DNA of 64,000 nucleotides, taken from the NCBI GenBank assembly GCA_963823665.1, contig CAWGMQ010000006.1, forward strand, positions 320,001-384,000, in the 5' to 3' direction. A program made the position numbers and the translations under genes. This DNA comes from an uncultured Planctomycetota bacterium. Lineage in GTDB: Bacteria; Planctomycetota; Planctomycetia; Isosphaerales; Isosphaeraceae. How positions within the stretch are numbered: the stretch's first letter is position 1; each line of letters opens with the position of its first letter. Positions 12,009 through 38,700 of this stretch are shown one piece after another. The notes under the pieces are model-generated. The model saw only the letters and a program-made list of their open reading frames with translations. It was not told where the DNA came from and did not search any database.

Positions 12009-12623
12009 TGCGATTGCCTCCAAAGCTGGCTGTTCGAGCACTGTGGAATCGGAGCTCGGGATCGCTCGAAGCCCGCATCGCCGGACGTGACTGACGAGTG
12101 ACGACTCGGACCGATGCGCTTCAAAATAACCCCGAACGCGGTGAAGACTTAAGAACGCAACCCTACTAGCACTTTACGTGCCTGTTATAGGGCCGGACGC
12201 CCCGGATCAAGTTATCGTAGAGTAACGAAAACGTTCAATCCGGAACGTAACGCGAGCCCGTCAACTTAGCCAGTGCGAACGCGAATGTAAATAGTCTAGT
12301 CAAACTGGAGTGTTTGCAGTGTTTGACATGGGTTTAACGACTTCGGTGGTCGCCCGGGTGGGGATCGTTGAAGTTTCGTAGGATGGGTGCAATCCACGAG
12401 ACGCAAAGCATTACGAAGAGGCGGGTTGCATCTACGTTGTGAGCGCGTCGATTGTGGTGCGGCCCCGGCCGGCGCTGGGGGCTCGAGTCGATTCACGCGG
12501 CAGGCGAAGTGGAGCGGGGTCTGACCGTCGCCGGCCCGGGTGTGCACGCTTTGAGGATGACACTCGCTGAGCTGCTTCGTCGAGACTTAACTGCGGGCCC
12601 AGCCGGTTTCCAACACGACGTTC

Positions 12624-12692
12624 ATGGGAGACGCGCCGGACTCAGAATCCTGGCCTCGCAAGAGCGTGTGGGTTCAAGTTCCACCTTCGGTA
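12624..12692 (+). pseudogene. 5'-truncated, degenerate tRNA-Leu(CAG) remnant (att-like scar)
   Basis: ATGGGAGACGCG-CCGGA-CTCAGAA-TCCTG, long variable arm CCTCGCAAGAG, T-arm GTGGGTTCAAGTTCCAC, acceptor 3' CTTCGGTA. The 5' acceptor strand is absent. Confidence 0.8.
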
Positions 12693-12981
12693 CTCATTGC
12701 AACGCGCGACGTGCAGAATGGGACGGACACTGCGCGGCGACGGGTGAAACTTCCCCCGCAACAGGCCCCCGCCCCGATCACATTGGAGTTATCATCTCGC
12801 ACTGTGCGTTAATCGCTGCGCACAGCAGGAAACCAGACGCCGCTTTCGATAATCGTAGCGAGCGCCGCCTGCGCGGACGAATTACCAGAAACCGCTACCA
12901 AGCTCTGGAAACAGGAACGGCCAGCGGGCGTTCGCCCCCTGGCCGTTCCACTTGAACATGGGTCGCCGACACCGCGCTCCC

Positions 12982-15074
12982 TCAATCGACGTACCAGACA
13001 TGGAATCGGATGTGCACGATGCCCGGCACGCGCAAGGCATTCACGTCAATCTTGACCCGGTTCGGAGGTAGGATCGTCAGATTGAACAGGCCGAGCCTTC
13101 TGCCGACCTCGTAGGGATTGTTAACGGCCTCCCACTGGACCGCCCGCACTTCTTTCCCGAACTGCTGCGGGAAAACGTGGGAAGTCGTTGTCGGCCCGAT
13201 GCGGATTGCATACGGATAATCGGCTTCAATTCCGAATGTCGCATCGAAGCTGGTGACCTTCAGCGCGTTGTCCTTGAGCGCCTTGATGTCGCCAACAAAA
13301 CCGGAGAGCTTCCCCTCGAAGGCAACGAGTTTCTTCTCGCCCTTCTCGAGACGACCATTCGCGGCAGCGAGGTCGTTCGTGTGTGCATCACTGACCTTGC
13401 GGAGTTGGGCGATCTTACGAGCCTGCCGTTCAACGGTTTCGGTCAGCGCGTTATTCTTGGTTTGCAGCTCCTGGAGATGTTTGGTGATCGCGAGGAAGTC
13501 CTCGTGCGGACGGGTGCGCAGCGGCAGCTCAGAAACGGAGACGTGGTCTTCGACGTCGCCGATCTCCACCCAAGAAACGACGGCCCTGGTCAGGGCACCG
13601 ATTCCACGCTCGTCGATGCGGTAGACTTGCAGGGTCTTGGCCAGGCCGTTTCCTGTCTCGAAGACGCCCTTACGCTGGTAGTGCAGTTTGGCCGCGGCCT
13701 CCGTCAGGCGATCGGAATCGTTGAGGAAATATTCACGGCTCTCGCTGAATCTCTTCCATTCTACGTCCGAGAGCTGGTCCGTCTCCTTGTTAAGTGAAAG
13801 GGAGAGGCTACCGCCGAAGATCCCGAAACTGGCGCTCGTCTTCCCTCGACCATTAAACTTTTCGCGAAGCTCGTGGTGTGCCTTACGGTCATCTTTGTGC
13901 TCGCGGAACACGTCCTGGATCGCGCGCAATGCTTCCTTCGCCTTGTGGAAATTCTCCTCGTCCTTCACTTCCTCGAAAAGCTGGTCGCGCGTCAGGATCG
14001 GCAAGGCCTCAACCTTTCCGTTCGCGACCGTAAAGACCTTGTCGCCCGCGGACCTGTCGAGCAGGTCGATCAGGTCATGCGCCGGGAGCTGGAGCTGTCC
14101 GAAAGAACCCAATGCCTGCTGATTCATCTTCTCCCGGATAGCCTCCAACTTCATTGGGTCGAGGTCGTTGCTCTCGAAGTAATGGACCATAGCCTGGGCA
14201 AGCCGGGTCATGATGTCACCGAGTACGGCTCGATCAACCCAGAGTTCGGAAGGAGCGTGCCCGGGGTCCGAGGGCTGGACGATTTCCTTGACAACCTCCC
14301 AGGCGCGACCTGTCATGGCCGTGACCGCGTGATAGAATGTGACCCGCTCGAACTCGTAGATGCAACGGACCTGGAGCATGGCATATTCGGGCTCACGCTC
14401 GAGCAGCCGACGCAGGCCGACCATCGTTTCAGGGACCTGGAAGACGATGCTCTTGTGATTTGTCGGAGCGATCGTGCCGTTCGGACCTCCGGTTTCCCCC
14501 GACGTGAGCTCCTGGTCCGGCCCGGCACCGCGAAGGATAATCTCGTAGGATCTCATGGCCATCGGCTCGAGATGAACGAAGTCGGCGCCCAGCTCTTTTT
14601 TGAGTTCCTCCTGTTTGGCCTTGAGGATCGTCACCGGCAAGGTGAAGTCCAGGACCGAGCGGAATTCGCGGGACTCCGGATTGTAGCTATGGGAAACGAC
14701 GCGAATCGGCAGCTCGTACTCGTAAAACTTACGAGGCGCTGATCCCTCGTCGTCGAGGAGCGGGCCGTAAATCGGCACGGGGCGCCCATCGAAGAACATC
14801 GTTTCGGTGTGCCTGACTGAGGGCTTGCCCGCGCGCCCTTCGCGGCACCAGGCCGCGGCTTCGCGACGCCAGGATAGGACGCCCTTCCAGGCTCGACCGC
14901 CGCAGCATTTGGAGTCGGTGTGGCGGCCTCTGCCTTCGGCAACGTCTCCGCCGCCGAAGCGTGCCAAGCCAAAAGACGCAGGCCAGCCACTCCCGTCACG
15001 GCCAACCCGATCGCCGCGAGCGCGATCGCCAGCGGCAACCGCCGGGATTTCAACATTCTACAATTCCTCACCAT
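12982..15074 (-). CDS. Secreted or membrane-anchored hypothetical protein (~697 aa) with a glycine-rich beta-hairpin-like segment, coiled coil and C-terminal beta domain; 1 frameshift
   Basis: ATG 15074 has a GAGGT RBS and a hydrophobic signal segment (ORF 14631-15074). It joins ORF 12982-14967 through a shift at ~14830-14960. Contains GKTSASFGIFGGSLSLSL and heptad-rich LQELQTKNNALTETVE. Confidence 0.7.
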
Positions 15075-15145
15075 GGGTGTGACCTCTTTGGGTAAGCTAT
15101 CGAACCGTGGGCATGCCTCGAGAGCCGAGGCATGCCCACATCGAT

Positions 15146-15526
15146 TCAGTTAATGGTGACCTTCACAGCGGTCCCAAGCGGGATGCCGCGGAACCGCACT
15201 TTGACGGTCCCAACGCAATCGCACGTACGGATGACGGTGTAGCGGACCAACCGGTCTTGATGCTGCCGGCCATCTGCGCCGAAGTACAAGACTTCGCCGT
15301 CGATGGAAGAACCTCCGATTGGTGTCGCGGTGATTGTGTAAGTCACCGCACCGGCGTGGGCCCCGACCTGGTACCAGCGTCCGAAGACATTCGGACCAGC
15401 CTGGACGATGTGGTCCTCGGCGTGGGCGGTCGAGACAGGACCGGCCATGCCCGCCAGCAACGTCAGGCACGCCACCAAGGCGGTAATCGAGTGTTTCGGC
15501 GATCGAAACAAGTTCAGCTTCAGCAT
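15146..15526 (-). CDS. Small secreted all-beta protein, possibly related to the colicin Z C-terminal domain
   Basis: RBS AGGGGGT, signal peptide ending AHA, mature ~90 aa with GPNVFGRW..H.GAVTYTI and VKVRFRGIPLGTAV. The family assignment is from memory only. Confidence 0.7.
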   Translation of the reverse strand: MLKLNLFRSPKHSITALVACLTLLAGMAGPVSTAHAEDHIVQAGPNVFGRWYQVGAHAGAVTYTITATPIGGSSIDGEVLYFGADGRQHQDRLVRYTVIRTCDCVGTVKVRFRGIPLGTAVKVTIN

Positions 15527-15599
15527 TCGAGACACCCCCTAAAGAAATTGTCAGCGACCGGGCAGGAACCAGCGTGCGCGTCGGTCGACGTGCGCGCCC

Positions 15600-15791
15600 T
15601 CAGAACTGGTGCCCCAAGCCGCCTTGCGGGCAATGGTGCAGCCCTAAATGTCCAGGATTATCACTGCATTGGAATTGGTGTATCGGGCATCGCGCGACGC
15701 ACCTGCCAATCAGCCAGGCCGCGTGCGCGGTCACACCGAGTGAAAGGCCGAGGAGTGCGAGGATCAGCGTCCGCTTCCACACATACTGCAT
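15600..15791 (-). CDS. Small secreted Cys/His-rich peptide (63 aa)
   Basis: Strong RBS AAGGAGGT, signal peptide ending AHA, mature part with 4 Cys and 5 His (CVARC..FQC..GHLGLHHC..GH). Confidence 0.75.
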   Translation of the reverse strand: MQYVWKRTLILALLGLSLGVTAHAAWLIGRCVARCPIHQFQCSDNPGHLGLHHCPQGGLGHQF

Positions 15792-16165
15792 CGAACACCT
15801 CCTTCAAGACGAGTTGTTAAAGAGGCGAGGCTCTGCGACCCCGACCACGATGGCCTAGGTCGAGGGCGCGGGCATCCAGTTGCCCGGCGTAGTGAAGACC
15901 CGCTGCCTTCACCTTCCACCTGACCCCCTTCATTTCGATAATCGTTCGGAGGGGACAGACCACGGATCCGACGCCCTCAAAAGGGCAGCGCGCGTCGCGG
16001 ACGTCGCCCGATGATGCCGCCACTCGCGGGGAGGGAGTACACCTCCCTAACGGCGCGGGGGGTCGTTACGATGGAAGGGCGCTAATGTGCACTACAAGTC
16101 TTGGCTACCGGCCGTGACGGCGTTAGGCTGCGCTGCGGCTTTGGGAGTCACGTGGAGATCAGGGG

Positions 16166-16813
16166 ATGAGCGGCGAGCGGACGGTAGACTCCCACGGACC
16201 AAGCGACCGGACGACGGCCCTGATGGGGCTGATCCAGCGGATCAAGCAGGGCGATCAGCAGGCGGTGAACGAGCTGATCGCGCTGGCTTACAATCGCATC
16301 CGCAAGGTTTCGGCCAAGATCCTGCACTCATCGAGCTTCGATGCCGTCACGCCGAAGCTCTACCAGACCGAGGACGTGGCCCAAGAGGCCTCGGTCCGCC
16401 TGATTGCAAGGCTTCGCAAGGTCCCCGTGGAGGACGTCGATCACCTGTTCGGATTGACTGGCATGATCGTCCGGCGCTACCTGCTCGACCTGGTGAGACG
16501 GGGCTCGATTGCCAACCTTAACTCCCAGGACCAAGCGGGTCTGGTTGCCCCTGATGGAGGGGGGACGTCGTCGTTCGAGGGGGCCCAGAAGATGGTTGCC
16601 GTGCTGGAAGGCATCGAGGCGCTCCCGGAGAAGCTGCGTCAAGTCGCCGACCGGATCCTCACCCTTGGCCTGTCTCAGGACGAGATCGCCGAGCAGATGG
16701 GCGTGAAGAGGGAGACGATCAAGAGGCAATGGCAGAGGGCCCGTATCCGTCTGGCGCAAGCCCTCCGGCCGAACTCGACCGGGCCCGAAGCCGGCCCGAC
16801 AGGTACTCCTTGA
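16166..16813 (+). CDS. ECF-type sigma-70 factor (planctomycete kinase-associated type)
   Basis: GDQQAVNELI, QTEDVAQEA (sigma2), LPEKLRQV..GLSQDEIAEQMGV..TIKRQWQRARIRL (sigma4). Its stop abuts the kinase ATG. Confidence 0.9.
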   Translation: MSGERTVDSHGPSDRTTALMGLIQRIKQGDQQAVNELIALAYNRIRKVSAKILHSSSFDAVTPKLYQTEDVAQEASVRLIARLRKVPVEDVDHLFGLTGMIVRRYLLDLVRRGSIANLNSQDQAGLVAPDGGGTSSFEGAQKMVAVLEGIEALPEKLRQVADRILTLGLSQDEIAEQMGVKRETIKRQWQRARIRLAQALRPNSTGPEAGPTGTP

Positions 16814-19800
16814 ATGATCGACCACGCGCGGTTGGAAGACCTGCTCGAACGGTGTCTAGAACTCCTCGACGACGGGATCGAACCGACTCGGCATGTGGTC
16901 GACGTAGCGCTCACCCCGGAGGAGTGGGATGAGCTCGCGCCGCGGCTCGCCGCCCTTAGACATGTGAACGACGGAGCGGCGGCACTGAACCCGTTCCACG
17001 CGGGCAACGCGGACAGGCGGCCCGCCCGTCCGGCGGCCCCGGCCTGGCATCAGGGGGACGAGCCGATTAGGGGCTATACCGTCCAGGAAGATGCGCCCAG
17101 GTCCCGTGGTGGCTCGGGGGAAGTTTGGTTGGCGAAGACCTCGGGGGGAGTTCGGGCCGCCCTGAAGCGCGTCCGTCTCGATCCGAACCGCCCCCTGGGA
17201 CAGCGCGAACTCGAGTCGCTCGAGCACGTCGAGACTTTGCGCCACGCCCACCTGCTGCCGATCCTGGCTTGGAAACACGATGGGGACGACGACGGCCGCG
17301 GTGGGGAGCTGGTCATTGCCATGGAGTGGGCCGACGAAGACCTGGAATCATATCGTTTGCGGCATGGCAGGGTTCCGGTCGATGAGCTCCTCAGGTTCAT
17401 GCAGGAAATCGCCGAGGGGCTCGATTATCTGAGGGCGAGCATGTCGGGCTGCGACAAGCGTGGTGTTGGCATCCACGGCGACGTCAAGCCGAGGAACCTG
17501 ATGATGGTCAACAATTCCATCAAGGTGGGGGACTTCGGTCTGGCCAGGGTCGTCACTCGCGGCTCAGCCGAGAGCGGCCCTTCGGCCATGACGCGGCGTT
17601 ACGCGGCCCCGGAGTGGTACCTGGGCCAGGAGTCGCCGCTCGCCGACCAGTACAGCCTGGGTCTCTCTTACTACGAGCTGAGGACAGGCCGTCACCCGTT
17701 CGATGAGTATAATGAGCAGATCCGCGCGGGGCTGATCTGCAGGAGATCCTTCAGGGCGCACGTCCAGACCAATTGCCCTCGCCGAAGGCAGAGGGTCTTT
17801 CCTTGTTGCGGGAGCCCGAGCGCATGGCGCTGGCCCGCGCCCTGGCCACAGGACCGGAAGAGCGTTACGCGACCTGCTGCGATTTTGTCCACGCGCTGCA
17901 AGACGCATGCAAGTCACCTTACGTTGCCCATACCCACACGCAACTGCCCTGCAACCTGCCGCTGGCCTCCATCGGCATGCTCTTCAAAGGGCGGGAGGCA
18001 TTCCTCGGCGAACTGCGAACCAGGTTCGGCACACCTGACGGCCGGGCGACGGCGATCGTGAACCGGCTGGCCGTGCACGGCCTCGGGGGCGTGGGCAAGA
18101 CGCGAACCGCGATCGAGTATGCCTGGCAACATGCCGATGAGTATACGGCCCTGCTGTTCGTTTCCGCTCCCTCCGCCGCCGAGCTCCGCGCCAACCTGGC
18201 CAACCTGGTCGAGGTGCTGGGGACGACTGCCGAAGGGACGTCAGTCGACCACCAACTCGCGGATGTCCTCAACTGGCTCGGCACCCATCCTGGCTGGCTG
18301 CTGATCATAGACAGCGTCGACACCGACGCGGCAGCGAGCGAGACCGAACGGCTGCTGGCGCAGCTCCGTGCTGGGCACGTGCTGATCACCTCGCGGATCG
18401 CCAACTGGAGTGCGGCGGTCGAGCCCTTGGAGCTAGACCTCCTGGCCCCGACCGAGGCGGTGGCCTTCCTGCTGGAGCGGACGCCACACCGCCTCCAGGC
18501 AGCCGACGATGCGGCTCGGGCCGGTGCCATCGCCCGCGAGTTGGACGGGTTGGTCTTGGCGTTGGAGCAGGCTGGGGCTTACATCGACACGCTACGGCTC
18601 TCATTCGCGGAGTATCTCCAGCGCTGGGAGGCCAAGCGGCACGAGGCGCTCAAGTGGCACGACCCGCGGCTGATGCAGTGTCCGGCCAGCGTGGCGGCGA
18701 CCTGGGAGACAACCTTCGCCCAGTTGGCCGAACCGGAGCAACGGCTGCTGGAAGTGCTGGCCTGGCTGGCACCGGAGCCGATCCCGCTCTTTCTCTTCGA
18801 GGCCGCGCCGCTCTTGGCGGCGATCCCCGACCCGCGCCAATCGCTCGCGGGCCTCGCGGGCTACTCCCTGGCACGATTCGATGCGGCGGGCGACGCGGTC
18901 CTGGTCCATCGGCTGGTGCAGGAGATCGGGCGGCGGCGACAGGCCCCAGCCGATCCCAAGGCGGGACTGAGGCTCGCCCTGAACTCAGTGGATGCGGTCG
19001 CGGTAGACAACCCGGAAGACATTCGGACCTGGCCCATCTGGAACCCGCTGGCACCACACGCGGCAGCAGTCACTCGACATGCGGATGCTGTGGGCCTCGT
19101 CGATCCGACCGTGCGGCTCATGATTCTACTGGGCACGTACCTGACTTTTCGCGGGCAGTTCTCCCGAGCAGAGCCACTGTCTCGCCGCGCCCTCGCCATC
19201 GCCGAGGACCGTTACGGCTCCGACCATCACAACGTCGCCGCCGCCCTCAACAACCTGGCGATTTTGCTCCGGGAGACCAACCGGCTGGGCGAGGCCGAGC
19301 CGCTCTGCCGCCGCGCCCTGGCGATTCGGGAGCGAAGTCTCGGCCCCGACCATCCAGCCGTCGCCACCGCTCTCAACAACTTGGCGATTTTGCTCAAGGA
19401 CACCAACCGGCTGGGCGAGGCCGAGCCGCACTTCCGCCGTGCCCTGGCGATTGGGGAGCAAAGCCTTGGCCCCGCCCATCCCGAGGTCGCCCACGCTCTC
19501 AATAGCCTGGCGATTTTGCTCCGGGACACCAACCGGCTGGGCGAGGCCGAGCCGCTCTTCCGCCGCGCCCTGGCGATCGCCGAGCACAGCTATGGCCCCA
19601 ACCATCCTACCGTCGCCATGCAACTCAACAACCTGGCGAATTTGCTTCGGGAAGCGAACCGGCCAGGCGAGGTCGAGCCGCTCCACCGCCGCGCCCTGAC
19701 CATTCTCGAGCACAGCTACGGCCCCGACCATCCAATGGTCGCCAGAGCTCTCAAAAGCCTGGTGAATTTGCTTCGGGAGACCAACCGGCCGGGCGAGGCG

Positions 19801-21126
19801 GAGCCGCTCTGCCGCCGCGCCCTGGCGATCGCCGAGCACAGCTACGGTCCCAACCATCCCGAGGTCGCCAGCGCTCTCAACGACTTGGCGACTTTGCTCC
19901 TGGAGACCAACCGGCCGGGCGAGGCGGAGCCGCTCTACCGACGTGCCATGACCATCGCCCTGGACGAGCCATGGCCCCGCTCATCCCAAGTTCGCCACCG
20001 CTGTCTACAACCTGGGGGCTTTCCTTCAACACACCAACCGGCTGGATGACGTGGAGCTGCTCTACCTCAACGCGCTCGATATCTGGGAGCGAAGTCTCGG
20101 CCCCGACCATCCCAAGGTCGCCACCGCCCTCAACAGCCTTGCGAATTTGCTCGGGGACACCAACCGGCTGAGCGAGGCGGAGCCGCTCTACCGCCGGGCC
20201 CTGGCGATTGCCGAGCACAGCTACGGACCCGACCATTCCGAGGTCGCGATAAAACTCCACAACCTGGCGCTGATGCTCAGGAAGACCAACCGGCTGAGCG
20301 AGGCCGAGCTGCTCTGCCGTCGTGCCCTGGCGATTCGGGAGCAAAGCCTTGGCCCGGACCATCCCGAGGTCGCCGCCTCCCTCAACAGCCTTGCGAATTT
20401 GCTCGGGGACACCAATCGGCCGAGCGAGGCGGAGCCGCTGTACCGCCGCGCCGTGGCGATTGCCGAGCACAGCTACGGCCCCGACCATCCCGAGGTTGCT
20501 TTCCCACTGAACAACCTGGCGCTGCTGCTCCGGCAGACCAACCGGCTGAGCGAGGCCGAGCTGCTCTGCCGCCGTGCCTTGGCGATTCGGGAGCAAAGCC
20601 TTGGCCCGGACCATCCCAAGGTCGCCGCCGCTCTCAGCAACCTGGCGGGGTTGCTGATGGCCACGAACCGGCCGGCCGAGGCCGAGCCACTGTACCGTCG
20701 GTCGCTGGCGATCGACGAGCGGTCCTATGGTCCCGAACACGAGAAAGTCTTCCACGACCTCAACAACCTAGCGGGACTGCTGCGGGAAACCAAGCGGTTG
20801 GCTGAGGCTGAGCCTCTGTATCGGCGGGCATTGGCAATCTGGCGGAGAACCGCCTCGGTCCCGACCAGCCAACCGTGGCCACCTCCCTCAACAACCTAGC
20901 GGGATTGCTGCGGGACACCAACCGGCAGGGCGAGGCCGAGCCGTTGTATCGGCGCCAGATGGAAATCTTCCGCATGTTCACCGAGGCGATCGGCCACGGG
21001 CATCCCCACCACCACGCCTCCATTGGAAACGACATCAGCCTGCTCGATGCCATGGGCCGGACACCCGACTAGATCGAGCAAGGGGTCCACGAGTTGATCG
21101 GCCCAGCGGATTCTGAGGGCTCCTGA
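16814..21126 (+). CDS. Ser/Thr kinase - NB-ARC (STAND) NTPase - TPR fusion (NLR-like); 3 frameshifts and a late in-frame TAG
   Basis: Kinase motifs GGSGEVW, AALK, HGDVKPRN, DFG, YAAPE. NB-ARC motifs GLGGVGKT, WLLIIDSVD, VLITSR, GLVLALEQAGAYI, VHRLVQ. About 15 42-aa TPRs follow. Shifts at ~17730 (G run), ~19960 (C run) and ~20840; TAG at 21070 with the frame open to TGA 21126. Confidence 0.82.
19110..21000 (+). repeat. ~15 tandem 126-bp coding repeats (42-aa TPR)
   Basis: ACCAACCGG...GAGGCCGAGCCGCTC recurs every 126 bp. Confidence 0.9.
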
Positions 21127-21558
21127 CGCCGGAAATCATCGAGCGACGGATGAGAGCGGGCAAGGGCTGCGGCCCCGCGATGGGTCGCTGTCGCGCCGGC
21201 CGGTCCCGACCTTCAGGCCGGACCTCGGGCCTCTGGCAGGGTAGTCAGTCTGCCTTCGGCACCTCGACCTCAATCGTCTCAGCACAATCGCCACGCACCA
21301 GGTTCGCCTCGGGCTTCGCCGAGGCGTTCTGTCGGGGTTACGGGGCAGGTGAACCTGGTTTATCGCCCGGGTCTGCGCTCGCGGTCGATCTCCTCCTCGA
21401 CAGACGGAGCTTGCCCCCTTCCCGTCGTGGTCACTCACGATTCTCGGGCTGGGTCAAGATGACTTCGCCGCATCGTCGGTTTGACGGGATGGAGAGTCCA
21501 CCATCGAGCGAGCCGCTCGGGTTCCGGTCGGACATATCCGCCTGTACGGGCCTTCATT

Positions 21559-21726
21559 TTGGTAACAAATTGGTAACGGCATTGGCAACATCAGCCCAAC
21601 ATGGCTACAAGATTGCCGGGTCGAGGCTGTATTGTCGCCGCCTCGAAATCAAGCAATTCAAGTCTCACCGCAACTTGTTGCCGATATCACGGCGATGGCA
21701 GAGGTTCCGGACTCAAAATCCGGTCC
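21559..21726 (+). repeat. att-like unit 1: three TTGG(T/C)AAC direct repeats plus a tRNA-Leu(CAA) D/anticodon-arm fragment
   Basis: TTGGTAAC at 21559 and 21570, TTGGCAAC at 21582; ATGGCAGAGGTTCCGGACTCAAAATCCGGTCC at 21695-21726. Confidence 0.75.
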
Positions 21727-21977
21727 ATCGTCGCCGGGCAGTTCGATCCGATTCCATGCGGCCCGTCCCGATACCTCGTCTACCACGATCAGCGTGAAGC
21801 CATCGCAGCTCTTCGAGATATTGGTAGGGGCGGCCGAGTTGCAGTTCCGCGGCACCAAAACGGTGGCAAACCACAGAAAAACAATACCGAAAAACTTTCG
21901 AAATCCTGGAAAACGGCAGCCCTTGGTATATCGCATTTAACTGGTTACCGAGAAAGGCGTTGTGTCAGACTGAACCT

Positions 21978-22024
21978 CCTGGTTTGCAACCAGGAGGTTG
22001 GCGGCTCGATCCCGCTGGTCTCCA
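21978..22024 (+). pseudogene. 3' half of tRNA-Ala(UGC) (att-like scar)
   Basis: Anticodon arm CCTGG-TTTGCAA-CCAGG, T-arm GCGGCTCGATCCCGC, 3' end TGGTCTCCA. No D-arm or 5' acceptor strand. Confidence 0.82.
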
Positions 22025-22370
22025 TTTAACACCAATCAGACGTTCAACTTACGTCAGCTAATTGCTTCGGTGAGCTTCTGCTCCGGATTGACCATCGAAT
22101 GGAAGCGGCGTGGAATTGTCCCGTGATTCTGCGGGTTTTTCATTAGCGCGAGCGCCTGGGTGAGTACCAGGCGCTCTCCGGATCTCCAACTCGACAGTCG
22201 CCTTGCTACCTGAATCTCGCCCCGCCTTGCCGGGATCGCCGAGATTCATGTTGCCCGACGCAAGGTGGCCGCATAGCAGCGAAGCACTCTGCCCCGTCCG
22301 AATTGTCGCGACGGGGGTTCTCGCGTTGATCGTGCGATCGCTTCCCCCCGAACGTCCCGTTCCCTCCATG

Positions 22371-22407: not shown

Positions 22408-22995
22408 ATGAACAACGAGGTCACCCGCATTCTTGGCGCCATTGAAGCGGGAAGCCCGCAAGCCGCCGAACGGCTACTGCCGCTGGTCTACGACGAGCTG
22501 CGCAGGCTGGCGGCGGCGCACATGGCGAACGAGGCGAGCGGCCATACCCTGTGCGCAACGGCTTTGGTTCACGAGGCCTATCTGAGACTGGTGGGAGATC
22601 AGCAGTTCAACAACCGGGGCCACTTCTTTGCGGCGGCATCTGAGGCCATGCGGCGCGTGCTGGTCGACCATGCTCGCAACCGCAAGCGGTTGCGGAGAGG
22701 CGGTCCGTCGCGATGGCGGGAGGAGCTTGAGCTCGACGCCGTGGCCCGGCTCGACGCCTCGCCCGACGACCTGCTCGACCTCGACGCCGCCCTTTCCCGG
22801 CTTGAGCGAGAAGACCCCCGCGCCGCCTCCTTGGTAAAGCTCCGTATGTTCGCCGGATTGACCCAGGACGAAGCGGCGACCGCGTTGGGTGTCGTCCGTC
22901 GGACCGCCGACCGCGACTGGGCATTCGCACGCGCCTGGCTATTTCGCCAGCTTTCGGAGAATTCATGTCGCACGGCGGAGCCAGACGGAGCATGA
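22408..22995 (+). CDS. ECF sigma factor, TIGR02999/ECF43-like, copy 1
   Basis: EVTRILGAIEAG..AAERLLPLVYDELRRLAA, HTLCATALVHEAYLRL, RTADRDWAFARAWL. Confidence 0.93.
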   Translation: MNNEVTRILGAIEAGSPQAAERLLPLVYDELRRLAAAHMANEASGHTLCATALVHEAYLRLVGDQQFNNRGHFFAAASEAMRRVLVDHARNRKRLRRGGPSRWREELELDAVARLDASPDDLLDLDAALSRLEREDPRAASLVKLRMFAGLTQDEAATALGVVRRTADRDWAFARAWLFRQLSENSCRTAEPDGA

Positions 22996-23064
22996 CGATG
23001 AGGAGGCCGCTTTCGGGCCTCCGATCCAGAGTCGTTCCGAGCCGATCCCGAGGAGTCGACGCCC

Positions 23065-27751: not shown

Positions 27752-27820
27752 CGATGAGAAGGCCGTTTTCGGGCCTCCGATCCTGAGTCGTTCCGAGCCG
27801 ATCCCGAGGAGTCGACGCCC

Positions 27821-30800: not shown

Positions 30801-31582
30801 GGCAGAAGCTGGTCGACGACCACCCCGCCGACACCAGCTTCCGCCAGCGGCTGGCGGACAGCCACTTCGACCTCGGCATCCTGCTGTCGGGGACGGGCAA
30901 GCCAGCGGAGGCGGCGGTCGAGTACCGCAAGGCGGTGGCGATCCGGCAGAAGCTGGCCGACGACAACCCCTCTGACATCGATCTCCGCCGTAAGCTGTCC
31001 TGGGACTATTTGAGGGTAGCTGCTCTCCAGGCGTGGTTTGGGCAGGACACGGAGCTTTCCTCCACTTGCGAGAAACTCCTTTCGCTCGCGAAAGATACGG
31101 AAGGTCCCGAGTTCGCCGAATGGGCGGCGAAGTGTTGCAGCCTGCGCCAGGCCGACCCCAAGCTGCGCGAAGCCGCGCTGGTTCTCGCCCGTCGCGCGGT
31201 GGAACATGGAAAGGGTTCCCAGTGGCTGGTTTATTACGAGATGGCCCTCGGCATGGCAGAATACCGGAGCGGACACTTCGCGGAAGCCGACGCCGCTTTG
31301 ACCGCGGCGATGAATGATCCAGGTAAAAATAACGCTGTATCAAGCACTTCAGCGTTCTACCGCGCGATAAGCCTGTTTCGACAGGGCAAGACCGACCTTG
31401 CCCGCAAGCTCGCTACCGAAGCGGCCGCGCAGATGAAACCGCTGCCCGTCGACGAGCAGAAACCGCTTCTCGGCGGTGCCGACGCGAACGACCTGATCAT
31501 GTGGCTGGCCTACAAGGAAGCGAAGGCCATGATCCAGTTTGACGCGACCCCCGCCGCCCCGGCGCAGCCCCACACGAAATGA
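27821..31582 (+). CDS. Membrane Ser/Thr protein kinase with TPR array, copy 2 (7 x 48-aa repeats)
   Basis: Same kinase, TM and C-terminal cap as copy 1; different repeat residues. Confidence 0.95.
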
Positions 31583-31596
31583 CCGCGTGTCTGGGA

Positions 31597-31640: not shown

Positions 31641-31734
31641 TATCGACAAAGACGGCGGGGTAGTGGCGGACGGAAACCGCAACGTCTCCAACCGCTCGGA
31701 ATGGATTTTGGTTCCGAGCGAGGTGTCGCTCTTG

Positions 31735-32332
31735 GGTACCTTGCTCCCTTGCCGACGTTCTCTTCCTTCAGTGCCAGTCCGAAATCGGCGACGTAGGGCT
31801 TGTCGTCCTGACCGATCAGGATATTGCCCGGCTTCACGTCCCTATGAACGAGTCCGTGCTTGTGGGCGTAATGCAGGGCGTCGGCCACAGTCGCCACCAG
31901 CACCGCGGCGTCCCGATAATCGAGCCGCTCGCGTTTCAGCCGTTTCGACAGGTCGGTCTCGTCGGTGTATTTCGAGACAACGTAGCAGGGGCAGTGCTCG
32001 GTGCTGCCCACGTCACGCACCGGGACGATGCCGGGATGGTCGAGATTGGCGACCATTCGAGCCTCGGCCAGATACGCTTCCGCATCTTCGGGCTTCGAGA
32101 TCAACCTGGCGTGCGGCACCTTGAGGGCGACGGGCCGGTTCAGTTGCTCACCCTGAGCGAGATAGACAAGGCCAAAGCTCCCCTCGCCCAGCGCTTTCTC
32201 AATGCGGTAGCGACCGATCCGCTGGGGATATTCGGCAGGTGCAGCACCACGTTGCGGGTCAGCTTTCCCTTCGTGATCCTCCGCCACATCGAGTGTATTC
32301 GATTCGTTCACGGCTGCCGTCGCCCTCCTCAC
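31735..32332 (-). pseudogene. 3'-truncated Ser/Thr kinase of a different subfamily
   Basis: [36 protein letters not shown]; homology stops at GKGARY, before the GTP/SPE motifs. Confidence 0.85.
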
Positions 32333-32646
32333 CCATGCCCGGCATTTTCGTCACCTCTCTATCAAGTCCGAGTCTAGCAATCTGGATCTGGGAGTGCATC
32401 ACGCACCCGCAGTTTGAGCCGCGAAACGATGTTTCTTTCGCCGAAAGCCGGGGCCAACGAAAAACCCCCGGCTGGCAGGACCGAGCGCCTCTCCTTAACG
32501 GGTTTGGTGCCTATCGGTCGCAAGACCGCTCCGGCATCGCCCGCGGATCACTTGGGACGGGTTTACCGGTGTAATCCGACATCGGCCGCCGCGCGTCAGC
32601 CTATCACGCATCATCAAGCCTGTACGGGCCTCCATTCGGACGCGAG

Positions 32647-32814
32647 TTGGGAACAAATTGGGAACGGTATTGGCAACGTCAGCCCCATGCGGCCACAATG
32701 CGAAAACACCAAGGTGGCGACGTGCTAGCCTTGGATTCGCAAACTTTAAGCACCACCGCAACCTGTTTCCAATGCGACGGCGATGGCAGACGCGCCGGAC
32801 TCAAAATCCGGTCC
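32647..32814 (+). repeat. att-like unit 2: TTGG(G/C)AAC x3 plus tRNA-Leu(CAA) fragment
   Basis: Repeats at 32647, 32658 and 32670; ATGGCAGACGCGCCGGACTCAAAATCCGGTCC at 32783-32814. Confidence 0.78.
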
Positions 32815-33063
32815 ATCGTCGCCGGGCAGTTCGATCCGATTCCATGCGGCCCGTCGCGATACCTCGTCTACCACGATCAGCGTGAAGCCATCGCGGCTCT
32901 TCGAGATATTGGTAGAGGCGGCCGAGTTGCAGTGCCGCGGCACCAAAACGGTGGCAAACCACAGAAAAACAATACCGAGAATCTTTCGAAATCCTGGAAA
33001 ACGGCAGCCCTTGGTATATCGCATTTAACTGGTTACCGAGAAAGGCGTTGTGTCAGACTGGAC

Positions 33064-33112
33064 CGCCTGGTTTGGAACCAGGAGGTTGGCGGTTCGATCC
33101 CGCTGGTCTCCA
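33064..33112 (+). pseudogene. Second 3' half of tRNA-Ala (anticodon mutated TGC to TGG)
   Basis: CGCCTGGTTTGGAACCAGGAGGTTGGCGGTTCGATCCCGCTGGTCTCCA, a paralogue of 21978-22024. Confidence 0.8.
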
Positions 33113-33495: not shown

Positions 33496-34089
33496 ATGAA
33501 CAACGAGGTCACCCGCATCCTCGGCGCCATCGAAGCTGGAAACCCGCAAGCCGCCGATCGGCTACTGCCGCTGGTATACGAAGAGCTGCGCAAGCTGGCG
33601 GCCGCACACATGGCGAACGAGGCGAGCGGCCATACCCTTAACGCAACGGCTTTGGTTCACGAGGCCTATCTGCGACTGGTGGGAGTTCAGCAGTTCAACA
33701 GCCGAGGTCACTTCTTCGCCGCGGCGTCTGAGGCGATGCGGCGCGTGCTGGTCGACCATGCTCGCAACCGCAAGCGGCTTCGAAGAGGCGGTCCTTCGCG
33801 ACGGCGCGAGGAGCTTGAACTCGACGCCGTGGCTCGGCTGGACGCTTCGCCGGACGACTTGCTCGACCTCGACGCCGCCATTTCCCGGCTTGAGCGCGAA
33901 GACCCCCGCGCCGCCTCCCTGGTCAAGCTCCGTATCTTCGCCGGACTGACCCAAGAACAAGCGGCGAAGACGTTGGGGGTGGTCCGACGGACAGCCGACC
34001 GCGACTGGGCGTTCGCACGCGCCTGGCTTTTTCGCCAGCTTTCGGAGAATTCCTGTCGCACGGCGGAGCCAGACGGAGCACGACGATGA
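33496..34089 (+). CDS. ECF sigma factor, TIGR02999/ECF43-like, copy 3
   Basis: Near-identical to copies 1 and 2; sigma4 reads LTQEQAAKTLG. Confidence 0.93.
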   Translation: MNNEVTRILGAIEAGNPQAADRLLPLVYEELRKLAAAHMANEASGHTLNATALVHEAYLRLVGVQQFNSRGHFFAAASEAMRRVLVDHARNRKRLRRGGPSRRREELELDAVARLDASPDDLLDLDAAISRLEREDPRAASLVKLRIFAGLTQEQAAKTLGVVRRTADRDWAFARAWLFRQLSENSCRTAEPDGARR

Positions 34090-34152
34090 GGAGGCCGCTT
34101 TCGGGCCCCCGATCCAGAGTCGTTCCGAGCCGATCCCGAGGAGTGGACGCCC

Positions 34153-37100
34153 ATGACTTCGCCCGCCCCCGACCTGAAGAGCATATTCTGTGAAGCCCTC
34201 GAGCGGCCAGGCGGCCCCGAGCGGGACGCGTATCTCGAGGACGCATGTCGCGGCAACCCAGCGCTCAAGGCGGGGGTCGAGGAGCTACTGGCCGCCCACG
34301 ACCAGGCGGGCCGCTTCCTCGCACAAGGCCCCGAAGGCCCGGTCGCTGGCGGGTCCAAGACTCTTGCCGCCACGGGCACCGATGCGCTGTCGAATGCCAC
34401 CAATGCGGCGGAAACAATTGCGAACGAAACACACGAATTGACGAGAACTTCCGCCTCGGAAACGCTCGGCTTCGCGGAGAATGGGTCTGGCACCACGAAC
34501 GCCACAGCCGTCGACTCAGGGCGGAAAAACCGCCCTGGCGGGTTCGTCCCGGGTCAGGTCATTGCGTTGCGCTACACGCTGAGAAACGTCCTCGGCGAGG
34601 GGGGCCTGGGCACGGTTTACCTGGCCGAACAGACCGAGCCGGTGAAACGCCAGGTCGCGCTCAAGCTGATCAAGCTTGGCATGGACTCGCGCGCGGTTCT
34701 GGCCCGGTTCGACGCCGAACGCCAGGCGCTGGCGCTGATGGATCATCCGAACATCGCCCGCGTTTACGACGGAGGAACCACCGAAACCGGCCAGCCGTTC
34801 TTTGTGATGGAACTGGTCAACGGCCTGCCGATCACGGATTATTGCGACCGCAAACGGCTGCCGTTCAAGGCCCGGTTGGAGCTGTTCGTGGCCGTTTGCC
34901 AGGCGGTGCAGCATGCCCATCAAAAAGGAATCATCCACCGCGACCTCAAGCCTTCGAACGTGATGGTCACCGAGGTTGACGGCCGTCCCACGCCCAAGGT
35001 CATCGATTTCGGCGTGGCCAAGGCCACGGAGTTCGACCTGACCGACCAGAGCCTGGGGGATACCGGAGCGATCGTCGGCACGCCTACCTATATGTCGCCC
35101 GAGCAAGCGGACCCGTCGTCGATGGACATCGACACACGGACCGACGTGTATGCGCTGGGCGTGATCCTCTACGAGTTGCTCGCCGGTTCGCCGCCGCTGG
35201 ATGCATCGCAATTCAAGCGAGGTGCGCTCTTGGAGATGCTGCGCATGGTGCGGGAGGTCGATCCGCCCCGTCCAAGCACGAAGGTGAGCACGGCGGAAGG
35301 GCTGCCCAACATCGCGGCCGGTCGCAGCATCGATCCGGCGCAATTGAAGCGAGCATTGACGGGCGATCTCGACTGGATCGTGATGAAGGCCTTGGAGAAG
35401 GACCGCACCCGGCGGTACGAGACGGCCAACGGCTTCGCCGCCGACATCAATCGGCACCTCTCGTGCGAGCCGGTACTGGCCGCGCCGCCGAGTCGGGTCT
35501 ACCGAATGAAGAAATTTGTCCGCAAGCATCGCGGCGGGGTGCTTGCCGCGAGCCTGGTGCTACTGTCGCTGCTGGGCGGCTTGGCCGCGGTGGCGGCGGT
35601 GCAGACGGTGGCCAACGCCAGGCTCGCGGCCTCGCTGAGGAGAGAAACGACCGCGAACATGGCCCTGAATGAAGCCAACGGCCAGCTCACCCAATCACGT
35701 GCGGCCGTGGAGGCGCGGTACAAGCTGGCGATGGACGCGATCAAGACGTTTCACACCGGCGTGAGTGAGGACTTCCTGCTCAAGGAGGAGAAATTCAAGG
35801 AGCTGCGCGACCGGCTCTTGAAATCGGCCGCGGACTTCTACGGCAAGCTCGGCGCCCTGCTCGGCAAGGAGACCGATATCGCCTCGCGGCGGGCGCTGGC
35901 GCAGTCCAACTTCGAGCTGGCCGGGCTGACGGACAAGGTCGGCCGCAACCAGGACGCCCTGGCGGCGCATCGTGCGGTGCTGGCGGCTCGCGAGGCGCTG
36001 GCGGCCGAACCGGGAGCCGGCACCCTGGCCAACGTCGACGTCGGGCGCAGCTTGATCGCAGTCGCCGGGCTGCTCGCAGCGACGGGCAAGACGGACGAGG
36101 CGCTGGCGTCCTACCGGCGGTCGGAGTCGCTGCTGGCGGGCGTGGCGGGTGCCGATCCATCGGCGCTGGCGGCGCTGGCGGCCTGCCGGTCGCAAATGGG
36201 TTGGCTCCTACAGAAGACGGGCAAGACCTCCGACGCCCTGGCGGCCTTACGGCTGGCGCGGGCCGACCAGGAGGCGCTGGCCGCCGCTCCCGAAGCCTCC
36301 AACGATGCCCGCCACGACCTGGCGGAAACCATCGCTCGCATCGGCCTCCTGCTGTTTTGGACGGGCAAGACGGCGGAGGGGGAGGCCGAGTACCGCAAGG
36401 CGATGTCGCTCTACCAGAAGTTGGCCGACGACAACCCCGCTGTCACCCAATTCCGCAGCGACCTGGCGCAAAGCCACTACCACCTCGGCGGCCATTTGGA
36501 CTGGGTCAAGCCCGAGGAGGCGGAGGCCGAGCATCGCCGGGCGGTGGCGCTCTCCCAGGAGCTGGTCGACGACCACCCCGCCGTCACCGAATTCCGCGGC
36601 GGCCTGGCCTGGAGCCACGACGGCCTCGGCTGGTCGCTGTGGCACACGGGCAAGCTGGCGGAGGCGGAGGCCGGGCTCCGCAAGGCGGTGGCGCTCTTCC
36701 AGAAGCTGGCCGACGACAACCCCGCCGTCGCCCGCTTCCGCCTCGGCCTGGCGCAAGACCACTTCACCCTCGGCCACGTGTTTTCGTCCATGGGCAAGCC
36801 AGTCGCGGCGGAGGCCGAGTACCGCAAATCGCTGTCGATCCGGCAGAAGCTGGCCGCCGACAACCCCGCCGACACCGAATTCCGCTTCCGCCTGGCGCAC
36901 AGCCACTTATGGCTCGGCGGCGTGCTGTCGAGCACGGACAGGCCGGCGGAGGCGGAGGCCGAGTACCGCAAGGCGATGACGCTCAACCAGAAGCTGGCCG
37001 ACGACGAGCCCGCCGTCACCGAATTCCCCAACTGGCTGGCGTGGAATCACCGCGCGCTCGCCGAGCTGCTGTCGAAGATGGGCAAGCCGGCGGAGGCGGA

Positions 37101-38055
37101 GGCCGAGCTCCGCAAGGCGCTGGCGATCCGGCAGAAGCTGGTCGACAACGACCCCGCCGACACCAGCGGGCGCCAGTGGCTGGCGGACAGCCACTTCGAC
37201 CTCGGCATCCTGCTGTCGAAGACGGGCAAGCCGGCGGAGGCCGAGGCCGGGCTCCGCAAGGCGCTGGCGATCCGGCAGAAGCTGGCCGACGACTACCCCG
37301 CCGTCGTCAACTTCGGCAGGAGCCCGGCGGAATTGCACTTCAACCTCGGCATCCTGCTGTGGAACACGGGCAAGCCGGCGGAGGCGGAGGCCGAGGACCG
37401 CAAGGCGGTGGCGATCCGGCAGAAGCTGGTCGACGACAACCCCTCTGACATCGATCTCCGCCGTGACCTGTCCCTCGAATATCTGAGGGTAGCTACCGTC
37501 CAGGCGTGGTTTGGGCAGGACAAAGAGCTTTCCTCCACTTGCGAGAAACTTCTTTCGCTCGCGAGAAATACGGAAGATTCCGCGGTCGCCGAAAGGGCGG
37601 CGAAGTGTTGCAGCCTGCGCCAGGCTGACTCCAAGCGGTGCGAACCCGCGCTGGTTCTCGCCCGTCGCGCGGTGGAACATGGAAAGGGTTCCCAGTGGCT
37701 GGTTTATTTCGAGATGGCCCTCGGCATGGCGGAGTACCGTAGCGGACACTTCGCGGAAGCCGACGCTGCGCTGATCGCCGCAGCAACTGGCGGCAAGGAC
37801 AACCCGCGCGTGGTCGGCACGTCGGCGTTCTACCGCGCGATGGGCCTATTTCGGCAGGGCAAGACCGACCTTGCCCGCAAGCTCGCCACCGAGGCGGCCG
37901 CCAAGATGAAACCGCTGCCGGTCGACGAGCAGAAACCGCTCCAGGGCGGTGCCGACCACGACGACCTGATCATGTGGCTGGCCTACAAGGAAGCGAAGGC
38001 AATGATCCGGCTTGACGCGACCCCCTCCGGCGCGGCGCAGCCCCACACGAAATGA
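34153..38055 (+). CDS. Membrane Ser/Thr protein kinase with TPR array, copy 3 (8 x 48-aa repeats)
   Basis: Same architecture as copies 1 and 2, with one extra repeat. Confidence 0.95.
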   Translation: MTSPAPDLKSIFCEALERPGGPERDAYLEDACRGNPALKAGVEELLAAHDQAGRFLAQGPEGPVAGGSKTLAATGTDALSNATNAAETIANETHELTRTSASETLGFAENGSGTTNATAVDSGRKNRPGGFVPGQVIALRYTLRNVLGEGGLGTVYLAEQTEPVKRQVALKLIKLGMDSRAVLARFDAERQALALMDHPNIARVYDGGTTETGQPFFVMELVNGLPITDYCDRKRLPFKARLELFVAVCQAVQHAHQKGIIHRDLKPSNVMVTEVDGRPTPKVIDFGVAKATEFDLTDQSLGDTGAIVGTPTYMSPEQADPSSMDIDTRTDVYALGVILYELLAGSPPLDASQFKRGALLEMLRMVREVDPPRPSTKVSTAEGLPNIAAGRSIDPAQLKRALTGDLDWIVMKALEKDRTRRYETANGFAADINRHLSCEPVLAAPPSRVYRMKKFVRKHRGGVLAASLVLLSLLGGLAAVAAVQTVANARLAASLRRETTANMALNEANGQLTQSRAAVEARYKLAMDAIKTFHTGVSEDFLLKEEKFKELRDRLLKSAADFYGKLGALLGKETDIASRRALAQSNFELAGLTDKVGRNQDALAAHRAVLAAREALAAEPGAGTLANVDVGRSLIAVAGLLAATGKTDEALASYRRSESLLAGVAGADPSALAALAACRSQMGWLLQKTGKTSDALAALRLARADQEALAAAPEASNDARHDLAETIARIGLLLFWTGKTAEGEAEYRKAMSLYQKLADDNPAVTQFRSDLAQSHYHLGGHLDWVKPEEAEAEHRRAVALSQELVDDHPAVTEFRGGLAWSHDGLGWSLWHTGKLAEAEAGLRKAVALFQKLADDNPAVARFRLGLAQDHFTLGHVFSSMGKPVAAEAEYRKSLSIRQKLAADNPADTEFRFRLAHSHLWLGGVLSSTDRPAEAEAEYRKAMTLNQKLADDEPAVTEFPNWLAWNHRALAELLSKMGKPAEAEAELRKALAIRQKLVDNDPADTSGRQWLADSHFDLGILLSKTGKPAEAEAGLRKALAIRQKLADDYPAVVNFGRSPAELHFNLGILLWNTGKPAEAEAEDRKAVAIRQKLVDDNPSDIDLRRDLSLEYLRVATVQAWFGQDKELSSTCEKLLSLARNTEDSAVAERAAKCCSLRQADSKRCEPALVLARRAVEHGKGSQWLVYFEMALGMAEYRSGHFAEADAALIAAATGGKDNPRVVGTSAFYRAMGLFRQGKTDLARKLATEAAAKMKPLPVDEQKPLQGGADHDDLIMWLAYKEAKAMIRLDATPSGAAQPHTK

Positions 38056-38497
38056 CCGCGTGTCTGGGATGGGACGGAAACAGGGACGGGACGGAAACAG
38101 GGACGCGACTAGTATCGACAAAGCCGGCGGGGTAGTGGCGGACGGAAACCGCAACGTCTCCAACCGCTCGGATTGATGGCGATAGGCCGGTTCAGTTGCT
38201 CATCCTGAGCGATCAAGTCCGAGTCTAGCAATCTGGATCTGGGAGTGCATCACGCACCCGCAGTTTGAGCCGCAAAACGATGTTTCTTTCGCCGAAAGCC
38301 GGGGCCAACGAAAAACCCCCGGCTGGCAGGACCGAGCGCCTCTCCTTAACGGGTTTTGTGCCTATCGGTCGCAAGACCGCTCCGGCATCGACCGCGAATC
38401 ACTTGGGACGGGTTTACCGGTGTAATCCGACATCGGCCGCCGCGCGTCAGCCTATCACGCATCATCAAGCCTGTCCGGGCCTGCATTCGGACGCGAG

Positions 38498-38700
38498 TTG
38501 GGAACAAATTGGGAACAGTATTGGCAACGTCAGCCCCATGCGGCCACAATGCGAAAACACCAAGGTGGCGACGTGCGAGCCTTGGATTTGCAGACTTTAA
38601 GCACCACCGCAACGTGTTTCCAATACCACGACTATGGCAGAAGTCCCGGACTCAAAATCCGGTCCCCGCAAGGGGCGTGGTTTCTAATCCGACGGTCGGT
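38498..38700 (+). repeat. att-like unit 3: TTGG(G/C)AAC x3 plus degenerate tRNA-Leu(CAA) extending through the variable and T arms
   Basis: Repeats at 38498, 38509 and 38521; ATGGCAGAAGTCCCGGACTCAAAATCCGGTCCCCGCAAGGGGCGTGGTTTCTAATCCGACGGTCGGT at 38634-38700. Confidence 0.78.

Follow-up and report, generated by a model that had tools for sequence, protein, structure and literature searches.

The locus considered here raises the question of how partial copies of one tRNA gene come to separate blocks of signalling genes in a place where no integrase is encoded. The stretch of DNA analysed (hereafter the window) comprises 64,000 nucleotides, G000:C6:320001-384000, from an uncultured planctomycete of the family Isosphaeraceae whose assembly, G000, has 16.46 Mb and is 92% complete (G numbers denote genomes and C numbers contigs). 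A preliminary description of the window proposed an integron-like platform of tandem accretion, which would collect and amplify cassettes of extracytoplasmic function (ECF) sigma factors and kinases at tRNA-derived sites. The answer favoured here, with moderate confidence, is that the tRNA-derived units are one-armed attR-type attachment sites of a family of integrative and mobilizable elements (IMEs) targeting tRNA-Leu, and that the integrase-free blocks between them are cassettes that likely hitch-hike on such an IME. The directly observed basis of this reading is the anatomy of the sites, a cognate integrase on an IME inserted in one of these scars, breakpoints at the cores, and identical cassettes in differing neighbourhoods.

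The four remnants of tRNA-Leu(CAA) are present where the preliminary description had placed them (12624, 21695, 32783 and 38634). They align to the sole intact tRNA-Leu(CAA) of G000 from base 15 (ATGGCAGA) or from base 27; unit 1 matches bases 15-83 (12624-12692, 91% identity), and units 2, 3 and 4 keep bases 27-46, 15-46 and 27-53, respectively. No tRNA was called in the window by ARAGORN or Rfam, and relaxed ARAGORN settings produced noise only. A triple direct repeat, the arm, starts at 21559, 32647 and 38498 (three matches in the window vs none in 100 shuffles) and the spacing from it to ATGGCAGA is exactly 136 bp in units 2, 3 and 4, so that both the remnants and the fixed position of three arms are borne out by the alignment and the shuffle test. 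The core of units 2-4, CCGGA-CTCAAAA-TCCGG, consists of inverted binding sites flanking a 7-bp overlap and is the same as in the tRNA target. Unit 1, whose core has two changes, one of them inside the overlap, is probably dead. The parts of the array are the following:

12587..12695, forward strand: unit 1, a truncated attR-type site by its sequence, with the arm repeats lost, the full 3' part of tRNA-Leu(CAA) and two core changes.
21559..21589, forward strand: arm of unit 2, triple repeat of the TTGGTAAC type.
21695..21726, forward strand: core of unit 2, tRNA-Leu(CAA) from the D-loop to the anticodon arm, with the 7-bp loop CTCAAAA between inverted CCGGA and TCCGG.
32361..32646, forward strand: non-coding right-end block, common to cassettes with differing cargo in several genera.
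32647..32677, forward strand: arm of unit 3, triple repeat of the TTGGGAAC type.
32783..32814, forward strand: core of unit 3, with the 17-mer intact.
38212..38497, forward strand: second copy of the non-coding right-end block (96% including the arm).
38498..38528, forward strand: arm of unit 4, triple repeat of the TTGGGAAC type.
38634..38672, forward strand: core of unit 4 and variable arm of tRNA-Leu(CAA), the remaining tRNA being lost.

The right-end block was also considered as an excisionase gene or an origin of transfer, and neither proposal found support: its six frames hold no conserved open reading frame (ORF) and nothing within the IME matches it.

No tyrosine integrase was found among the 51 window ORFs scanned or at the window locus in the genome-wide list of integrases, the same scan and list gave no integration or transfer genes in the window blocks, and a second arm (P') is absent behind all four cores. 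The recombinase is indeed encoded elsewhere, as had been suggested. On contig C4 the arm motif recurs downstream of one core, 30-50 bp before the gene for a 445-aa tyrosine integrase (C4:535074-536408; domain PF00589), which heads a 38.9-kb element (C4:534932-573788) carrying a coupling protein (T4CP), a TrwC/MobF relaxase scoring above the MobF cut-off, RepA, ParA and defence or restriction-type genes. The element is closed by a second unit, and its left junction is an old scar rather than a tRNA; no intact tRNA-Leu was found in the 90 kb upstream. No mating-pore family was detected among its scanned ORFs, short ORFs and some long ones lying outside the scan or being scanned to 500 aa. Judged by this gene content, the element appears to be an IME (integrase, relaxase and coupling protein, with no complete mating-pore system among the scanned ORFs).

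In G096 an element of the same architecture lies at an intact tRNA-Leu(CAA), headed by an integrase 84% identical to that of C4. Among 30 loci with integrase homologs, ARAGORN at a relaxed threshold called tRNA-Leu just upstream at 14 and tRNA-Gln at 3; this tRNA is usually followed by a direct repeat, and the repeat variant pairs with the integrase variant. The homolog of Singulisphaera acidiphila (58%), preceded by a TTCTGCA arm type, places the family among planctomycetes, and the integrase has no match among plasmid records. In the predicted structure (pLDDT 85) the N-terminal part is made of three strands followed by a helix, and the alignment to lambda Int covers the whole protein, from which the enzyme is assigned to the three-domain lambda type, with a predicted arm-binding N-terminal fold. 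The inverted core around a 7-bp overlap, and arm repeats at a fixed distance that also occur beside the integrase gene, are features of lambda-type attachment sites. Given the arm motif before the cognate integrase and the lambda-type fold of the latter, the units are attR-type sites composed of a P arm, a core at the anticodon arm and, optionally, the tRNA 3' half, and the proposal that they are integrase attachment sites is upheld by this core and arm anatomy. A further integrase gene (C4:499853), 580 bp behind another scar, was discarded as partner: it is XerC/D-like, has no arm in front and shows weak similarity to the cognate enzyme. Apart from this, a phage-like element that encodes a different family of integrase along with capsid and DUF3987 genes (G000:C10:1320001-1340000) lies 19 kb upstream of two Leu scars.

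The array is not a single locus. A unit-profile search of G000 gave 31 non-tRNA cores in 14 clusters on six contigs, a lower bound because the profile was run on stretches around pattern and BLAST hits, and the window array is one of these 14 clusters. All eight multi-unit clusters are co-oriented. The single intact tRNA-Leu(CAA) of the genome is at C8:58979, on a contig other than that of the window, with no scar within 11 kb behind it, and no intact tRNA-Leu(CAA) was found in the 32 kb ahead of unit 1. Six of 121 family genomes contain 8-24 exact matches to the 26-letter core pattern and all six measure 12-16.5 Mb; nine other genomes of at least 12 Mb have just 1-4 matches each, so that size alone is no explanation.

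In 15 genomes (2.09 Mb) 134 cores were collected, 12 in intact tRNAs and 122 elsewhere. Within the latter group the arm is present at 90 cores, nearly always at -152/-153, the exact 17-bp core in 104, a recognisable tRNA 3' half in 88 and the exact 21-bp tRNA 3' motif in 45. An IME left end occurs at seven of the 122 junctions, only one of them with a full integrase, and P' is absent at the other 115. Moreover, the tRNA 3' half is gone from 24 of the 90 armed scars, which keep arm and spacing, and in G084, G102, G104 and G105 integrase-free and P'-free cassettes stand directly behind intact tRNAs. The tRNA variable arms found in scars comprise several paired variants matching the tRNA genes of different hosts, which points to many donors.

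The limits of the cassettes were traced by comparing 119 cores with both flanks available. The upstream flank is shared in 12 pairs and the downstream flank in 30 (at least 85% identity), and both flanks are shared in only 1 of the 41 flank-sharing pairs vs 3321 of 6178 control windows (54%; the control windows include repeats). In 10 pairs, picked for one-sided similarity, the change in identity comes no more than about 75 bp from the core. A core-to-core block of 4.6 kb is 95.6% identical in G001 and G033, which belong to different genera; two contigs of G069 share blocks of 1904 bp (99.8%) and 1286 bp (99.1%) with different cassettes between them; and a right end of 3.5 kb recurs at 95-98% in G000, G021 and G033. 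The arm lineage of units 3 and 4 comprises 33 cassettes in 9 genomes, in which one right end is joined to many cargos. The preliminary description had named three outcomes that would speak against it, namely breakpoints away from the tRNA cores, no integrase tied to the arm motif and no other cargo bounded by the unit, and none of them was encountered: the flank-sharing pairs and identity switches put the breakpoints at the cores, the integrase goes with the arm, and elsewhere the units bound mixed gene blocks.

No orthologous empty locus was found, the flanks being patchy in the five genomes compared for the right side and among the 60 compared for the left (4 candidates scored per genome). 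Among the contigs listed from four soil, bog and wetland runs there was no core-to-core joint, public runs containing at most 31% of the words; these contigs carry the same arm attached to other tRNA 3' halves. A duplicate of 2.4 kb at 99.5% stands behind scars on different contigs of G000 (C10:1147144-1149713 vs C3:1157561-1160130), with its left edge at the core and its right edge away from any scar.

Two further scars, overlooked in the preliminary description, are nested within the array. They are remnants of tRNA-Ala(TGC) at 21978-22026 and 33064-33112, 92% identical to the intact gene, about 270 bp behind Leu cores 2 and 3 and each with its own upstream arm-like block:

21835..22026, forward strand: nested tRNA-Ala(TGC) attachment scar, arm-like block, anticodon arm and 3' half.
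32920..33112, forward strand: second nested tRNA-Ala(TGC) scar, with the loop altered to TTTGGAA.

An ECF-kinase module follows the intact tRNA-Ala(TGC) of G012 (81%), and such modules also occur within the Ala-fragment arrays of G001 and of G000 C10, the C10 copy being followed by a Leu scar; therefore, the ECF-kinase module is cargo of the Ala system captured, scar included, inside a Leu cassette. The reverse nesting exists too, since Leu scars stand behind tRNA-Ala (C10) and tRNA-Trp (C8) in G000, and CAA scars stand behind tRNA-Leu(TAA) in G021. From these arrangements, nesting may be the route by which arrays leave their tRNA. An Ala-system integrase was not identified in the tRNA-Ala arrays of G000, G001 and G069; the integrase-like genes in those of G001 and G069 were set aside, their sequences being presumably those of IS91-associated recombinases. 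In G000, the stretch C10:1161683-1169333 contains an intact tRNA-Ala(TGC), an arm-like repeat without integrase and then two Ala scars, and C8:196711-196814 is a tRNA-Trp(CCA) call with a 33-nt insertion in the anticodon loop and two Leu scars behind it. A sister family of scars, built from tRNA-Leu(TAA) with the same arms (C4:2590527-2604667 and C4:2081006), is stacked behind tRNA-Glu and not behind tRNA-Leu(TAA).

The blocks delimited by the four units measure 9071, 11088 and 5851 bp core to core (the first had been given, slightly short, as 8.9 kb). The statement that each block contains ECF and kinase genes holds for all three, with the qualification that in block 1 the ECF is unrelated to the others and the kinase gene, which also encodes tetratricopeptide repeats (TPR), is split over three ORFs. 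The genes of the array are:

12641..21711, forward strand: block 1, 9071 bp core to core, with a 605-aa ORF of no known family, a divergent ECF and a broken kinase-TPR gene.
12982..14799, reverse strand: the 605-aa ORF, with no usable match in Pfam, NCBIfam or the protein atlas.
16166..16813, forward strand: ECF sigma factor, below the TIGR02999 cut-off and unrelated to the ECFs of modules A-C.
16814..20899, forward strand: Ser/Thr kinase, P-loop and TPR_10/12 gene in three ORFs (16814-18061, 17773-20049 and 20051-20899).
22408..26820, forward strand: module A, TIGR02999 ECF (22408-22995) and kinase-transmembrane-TPR gene (23065-26820).
27164..31582, forward strand: module B, ECF (27164-27751) and kinase-transmembrane-TPR gene (27821-31582), with its nearest relative in G069 C20.
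31740..32371, reverse strand: inverted fragment of another kinase gene, common to G069 C20 and G000 C3 and not noticed previously.
33496..38055, forward strand: module C, ECF (33496-34089) and kinase-transmembrane-TPR gene (34153-38055), the TPR part 97.8% identical to G069 C25.

The split gene of block 1 is either a broken gene or an assembly error. Its kinase part (17824-20899) runs on into a P-loop (GLGGVGKT) and then into TPR_10/12 repeats, a kinase-STAND-TPR layout which, from its motif, we take to resemble a sensor of the NOD-like receptor (NLR) type. The ECFs of modules A and C score 201 and 203 bits with TIGR02999 vs a cut-off of 126, and for module B the DNA identity is 91-93%. In kinases A-C the HRDLKP and DFG motifs are intact, and each protein has one membrane helix as well as a TPR array; the modules are under purifying selection (pN/pS about 0.1-0.3). 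By analogy, the cargo is likely to consist of membrane kinases with outside TPR sensors, which would activate the partner ECF by phosphorylation. Kinase association is described for groups such as ECF217 in PMC7826278. The planctomycete kinase-associated ECFs and kinase-transmembrane-TPR proteins treated in PMC7826278 and PMC11032199, as far as their accessible text goes, are alike in having a TIGR02999 ECF adjoining a single-pass Ser/Thr kinase with a C-terminal TPR array; there the expansion is ascribed to duplication and recombination, and transport between genera on cassettes bounded by attachment sites is not described.

The preliminary description had the modules amplified in place, which is not supported: they form a mosaic, with TPR parts nearest to copies in other genomes. 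Blocks 2 and 3 have in common a left tail of 696 bp (97%) and a right end of 454 bp (96%), and the modules between these ends differ at 14-28% of silent sites vs 3-4% in the flanks. Module B, together with the inverted kinase fragment, the right-end block, arm and core, is 92-97% identical to G069 C20, and the TPR part of module A is nearest to G001 C5 (87.5%). Trees pair B with G069 C20 and C with G069 C25; a tree of ECF and kinase domains gave no resolution. A simple duplication of one module in place is ruled out by this silent divergence (0.14-0.28) and the tree pairs. Because the block ends are shared while the modules diverge at silent sites and have their relatives elsewhere, blocks 2 and 3 belong, by sequence, to a single cassette lineage in which the modules have recombined, and are not fresh copies. 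The TPR arrays (25100-26200, 29850-31050 and 36200-37500) are the most variable part of the modules, 80-83% among A-C; this variability, seen beside the 97.8% copy in another genus, may reflect sensor-domain swapping. Short GGACGGAAAC repeats occur at 31600-31741 and 38072-38175, after kinases B and C, as well as at 48325-48351, and also at G000 C10 and G069 C25.

According to the hitch-hiking mechanism, any leftover core could serve as a secondary attB. An IME landing in an array would pair its left site (core, P' arm and integrase gene) with a more distant scar and would thus be excised along with the cassettes downstream. Once transferred and integrated, the IME would leave alone, so that core, cassette, arm and core remain and the scars have one arm, no P' and no integrase. 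Scars lying inside cassettes of other tRNA systems (Ala within Leu, Leu behind tRNA-Ala or tRNA-Trp) would then seed arrays away from tRNA-Leu. Blocks 2 and 3 would descend from one cassette lineage, their ECF-kinase modules having been exchanged later by homologous recombination with a wider gene pool.

Several points weigh against this mechanism. Hitch-hiking predicts co-transfer of neighbours, and yet both flanks are shared in a single pair; five of the six high-copy genomes show no array at their intact tRNA; and no excised circle, empty site or transfer was observed, the reads compared coming from outside the source sample. The right ends of both integrase-bearing IMEs fall outside the 33-member arm lineage, in a cluster of 12, and therefore cross-recognition is assumed. 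In addition, the flank pairs are not independent, all the genomes are incomplete assemblies, the duplicates of G069 may come from two strains assembled together (6% contamination), and the conservation of the cores is inflated because these were partly found by their own sequence.

The little neighbour co-transfer and the empty tRNAs favour a rival, on balance rather unlikely, in which the integrase of a distant IME acts in trans on two one-armed scars, cutting out single-cassette circles that are inserted into other scars; the result would be an integron-like network that would also rearrange the chromosome and spread arrays. It would account for cassettes being exchanged singly (1/41 pairs), for P' being absent at 115/122 junctions, for the armless tRNA gene being empty in 5/6 high-copy genomes while scars pile up elsewhere, and for the 24/90 armed scars that keep arm and spacing after losing the tRNA 3' half. 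A one-arm 'bent-L' pathway is known for lambda. Against recombination between scars, efficient reactions by lambda-type integrases normally require both arms, and the P'-free cassettes directly behind armless tRNA genes in four genomes indicate that two arms in the partner are not required; moreover, no circle was seen, and a bare circle crossing between genera is left unexplained without the transfer genes of an IME. In its widest form, which is offered tentatively as a possibility, there would be a chromosome-wide integron-like network of one-armed lambda-type sites, in which the tRNA-derived scars of each genome, about 30 in number, serve both as donors and as landing pads, a single integrase acting in trans shuffles single multi-gene cassettes among scars and between genera, and the huge accessory and signalling repertoires of a clade of soil planctomycetes with genomes of 12-16 Mb are fed in this way.

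It is unlikely that the units are inert remains of IMEs that once formed a stack at tRNA-Leu, were deprived of their integrase ends by deletions and then dispersed through ordinary rearrangements, with unequal homologous recombination between scars giving rise to blocks 2 and 3. Such a history agrees with the full integrase missing at 6 of the 7 P'-bearing junctions, with the tRNA, P' and integrase stub of G002, with the degenerate unit 1 and with the tandem modules lacking a Leu unit in G069 C21; likewise, blocks 2 and 3 are alike in tail (97%) and right end (96%), and scars 70-95% alike over 200 bp could seed homologous exchange. However, in the 10 pairs mentioned above, picked for one-sided similarity, the switches lie within about 75 bp of the core and are not spread across the 200-bp unit, the neighbours of cassettes identical at 95-100% vary from genus to genus, a single right end occurs with many cargos, and an intact IME is present in a scar with no intact tRNA-Leu within 90 kb upstream.

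As regards the cargo, tblastn placed kinases in 27 of 75 blocks, or 28 with block 1, whose divergent kinase it missed, and ECF and kinase together in 11. The 663 kb of blocks contain 32 kinase domains vs about 22 expected (about 1.5-fold, p about 0.02), on a rough background derived from the ~540 kinase candidates of G000. A scan of 132 of the 236 unlabelled ORFs shows that hydrogenase/NADH-dehydrogenase-like genes, glycosyltransferases, defence genes and genes of toxin-antitoxin type are also among the cargo, and the cassettes are multi-gene, with a median of 5.9 kb and genes on both strands. The cassette platform is general. A platform specialised in collecting and amplifying ECF-kinase modules, as the preliminary description emphasised, is very improbable, for the pair in all three window blocks, the modest kinase excess and the purifying selection on the modules stand against 47/75 blocks without a kinase, 64/75 without the ECF and kinase pair, modules that are not sister copies, and ~540 kinase candidates and at least 143 PF07638 hits in G000 lying nearly all outside the blocks.

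The present system resembles integrons and clusters of attC sites lacking integron integrases (CALINs) in its integrase-free, co-oriented cassettes, which would be shuffled at short sites by an enzyme whose gene lies in another place. It differs from them in that the sites are explained as double-stranded arm and core sites from a tRNA anticodon arm instead of attC hairpins, the enzyme is lambda-like instead of IntI and the cassettes are multi-gene with genes on both strands. As class membership, the integron-like platform was not sustained: the integron-integrase model TIGR02249 scores 39.5 bits vs a cut-off of 265 with the cognate integrase. The array would work like the accretion and cis-mobilisation of cis-mobilizable elements (CIMEs), and is not an integron.

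CIMEs are defined, in the part of PMC5704250 available, as retaining attL and attR, and their stacks are tied to the target gene. The accretion described there for CIMEs, IMEs and integrative and conjugative elements (ICEs) is similar in the integrase-free elements at attachment sites, the chimeric internal sites, the landing of an IME in a resident site and the composite excision; it differs from the present case, where P' is missing at 115/122 junctions, the scars occupy 14 places off the tRNA and two tRNA systems are nested. The window blocks have no integration or transfer genes, as CIMEs do not, and they have not kept both attL and attR. An IME is present within one array and may mobilise cassettes in cis, their movement being suggested by the recurring cassettes and the flank breaks. 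The ssrA islands of Dehalococcoides, according to the text available of PMC3146451, are likewise arranged in tandem, with fragments of the target RNA gene as their boundaries, many of them lacking an integration module, and carry adaptive cargo; there all repeats are at most 100 kb behind ssrA, no strain has duplicate islands and the integrase is a serine one, whereas here the integrase is a tyrosine one, dispersal extends over six contigs and duplicates occur within an assembly. Related to this, the window array does not start at an intact target gene, as tRNA-anchored tandem islands do. The tycheposon islands of Prochlorococcus (bioRxiv 10.1101/2020.12.28.424599, accessible part) resemble the present arrays in their tyrosine integrases at tRNAs and in the partial tRNAs and integrase remnants scattered in islands; they lie next to their tRNA, with their own integrase and no conjugation genes, whereas in the present case the helper IME bears a relaxase and the cargo units are free of integrase. 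Thus the ingredients are known from CIMEs, ssrA islands and tycheposons, and this system differs in that tens of its sites lie away from the target gene, the sites have one arm, two tRNA systems are nested and cassettes are apparently exchanged across genera. No description of this system was found in the literature searched, which covered few subscription papers.

The remainder of the window contains other genes. Just left of unit 1 (8574-11930) there is a protein with ten IPT/TIG repeats, and a related gene precedes another scar (G000 C3:1160800). To the right, 38652-44835 is an operon of lipid-modifying type (phosphatase, methyltransferase, hydrolase, acyltransferase, cytidylyltransferase and CDP-alcohol transferase), matched at 74% in G030 only among five genomes tried. 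A MITE-like element (miniature inverted-repeat transposable element) with perfect 35-bp inverted repeats 160 bp apart lies at 47838-48067 (90% match in G001), and a gamma-glutamyltranspeptidase gene at 53133-55066 is split over two frames (94% match in G021).

The finding offers a concrete route by which the giant genomes of planctomycetes gain and swap multi-gene blocks, ECF-kinase modules included, between genera. It also implies that attachment scars derived from a tRNA can keep working far from it, and island finders that depend on a tRNA or on an adjacent integrase would miss them. Finally, the small integrase, the 17-bp core and the natural one-armed sites provide a direct in vitro handle on the question whether a cassette system can be run by lambda-type enzymes.

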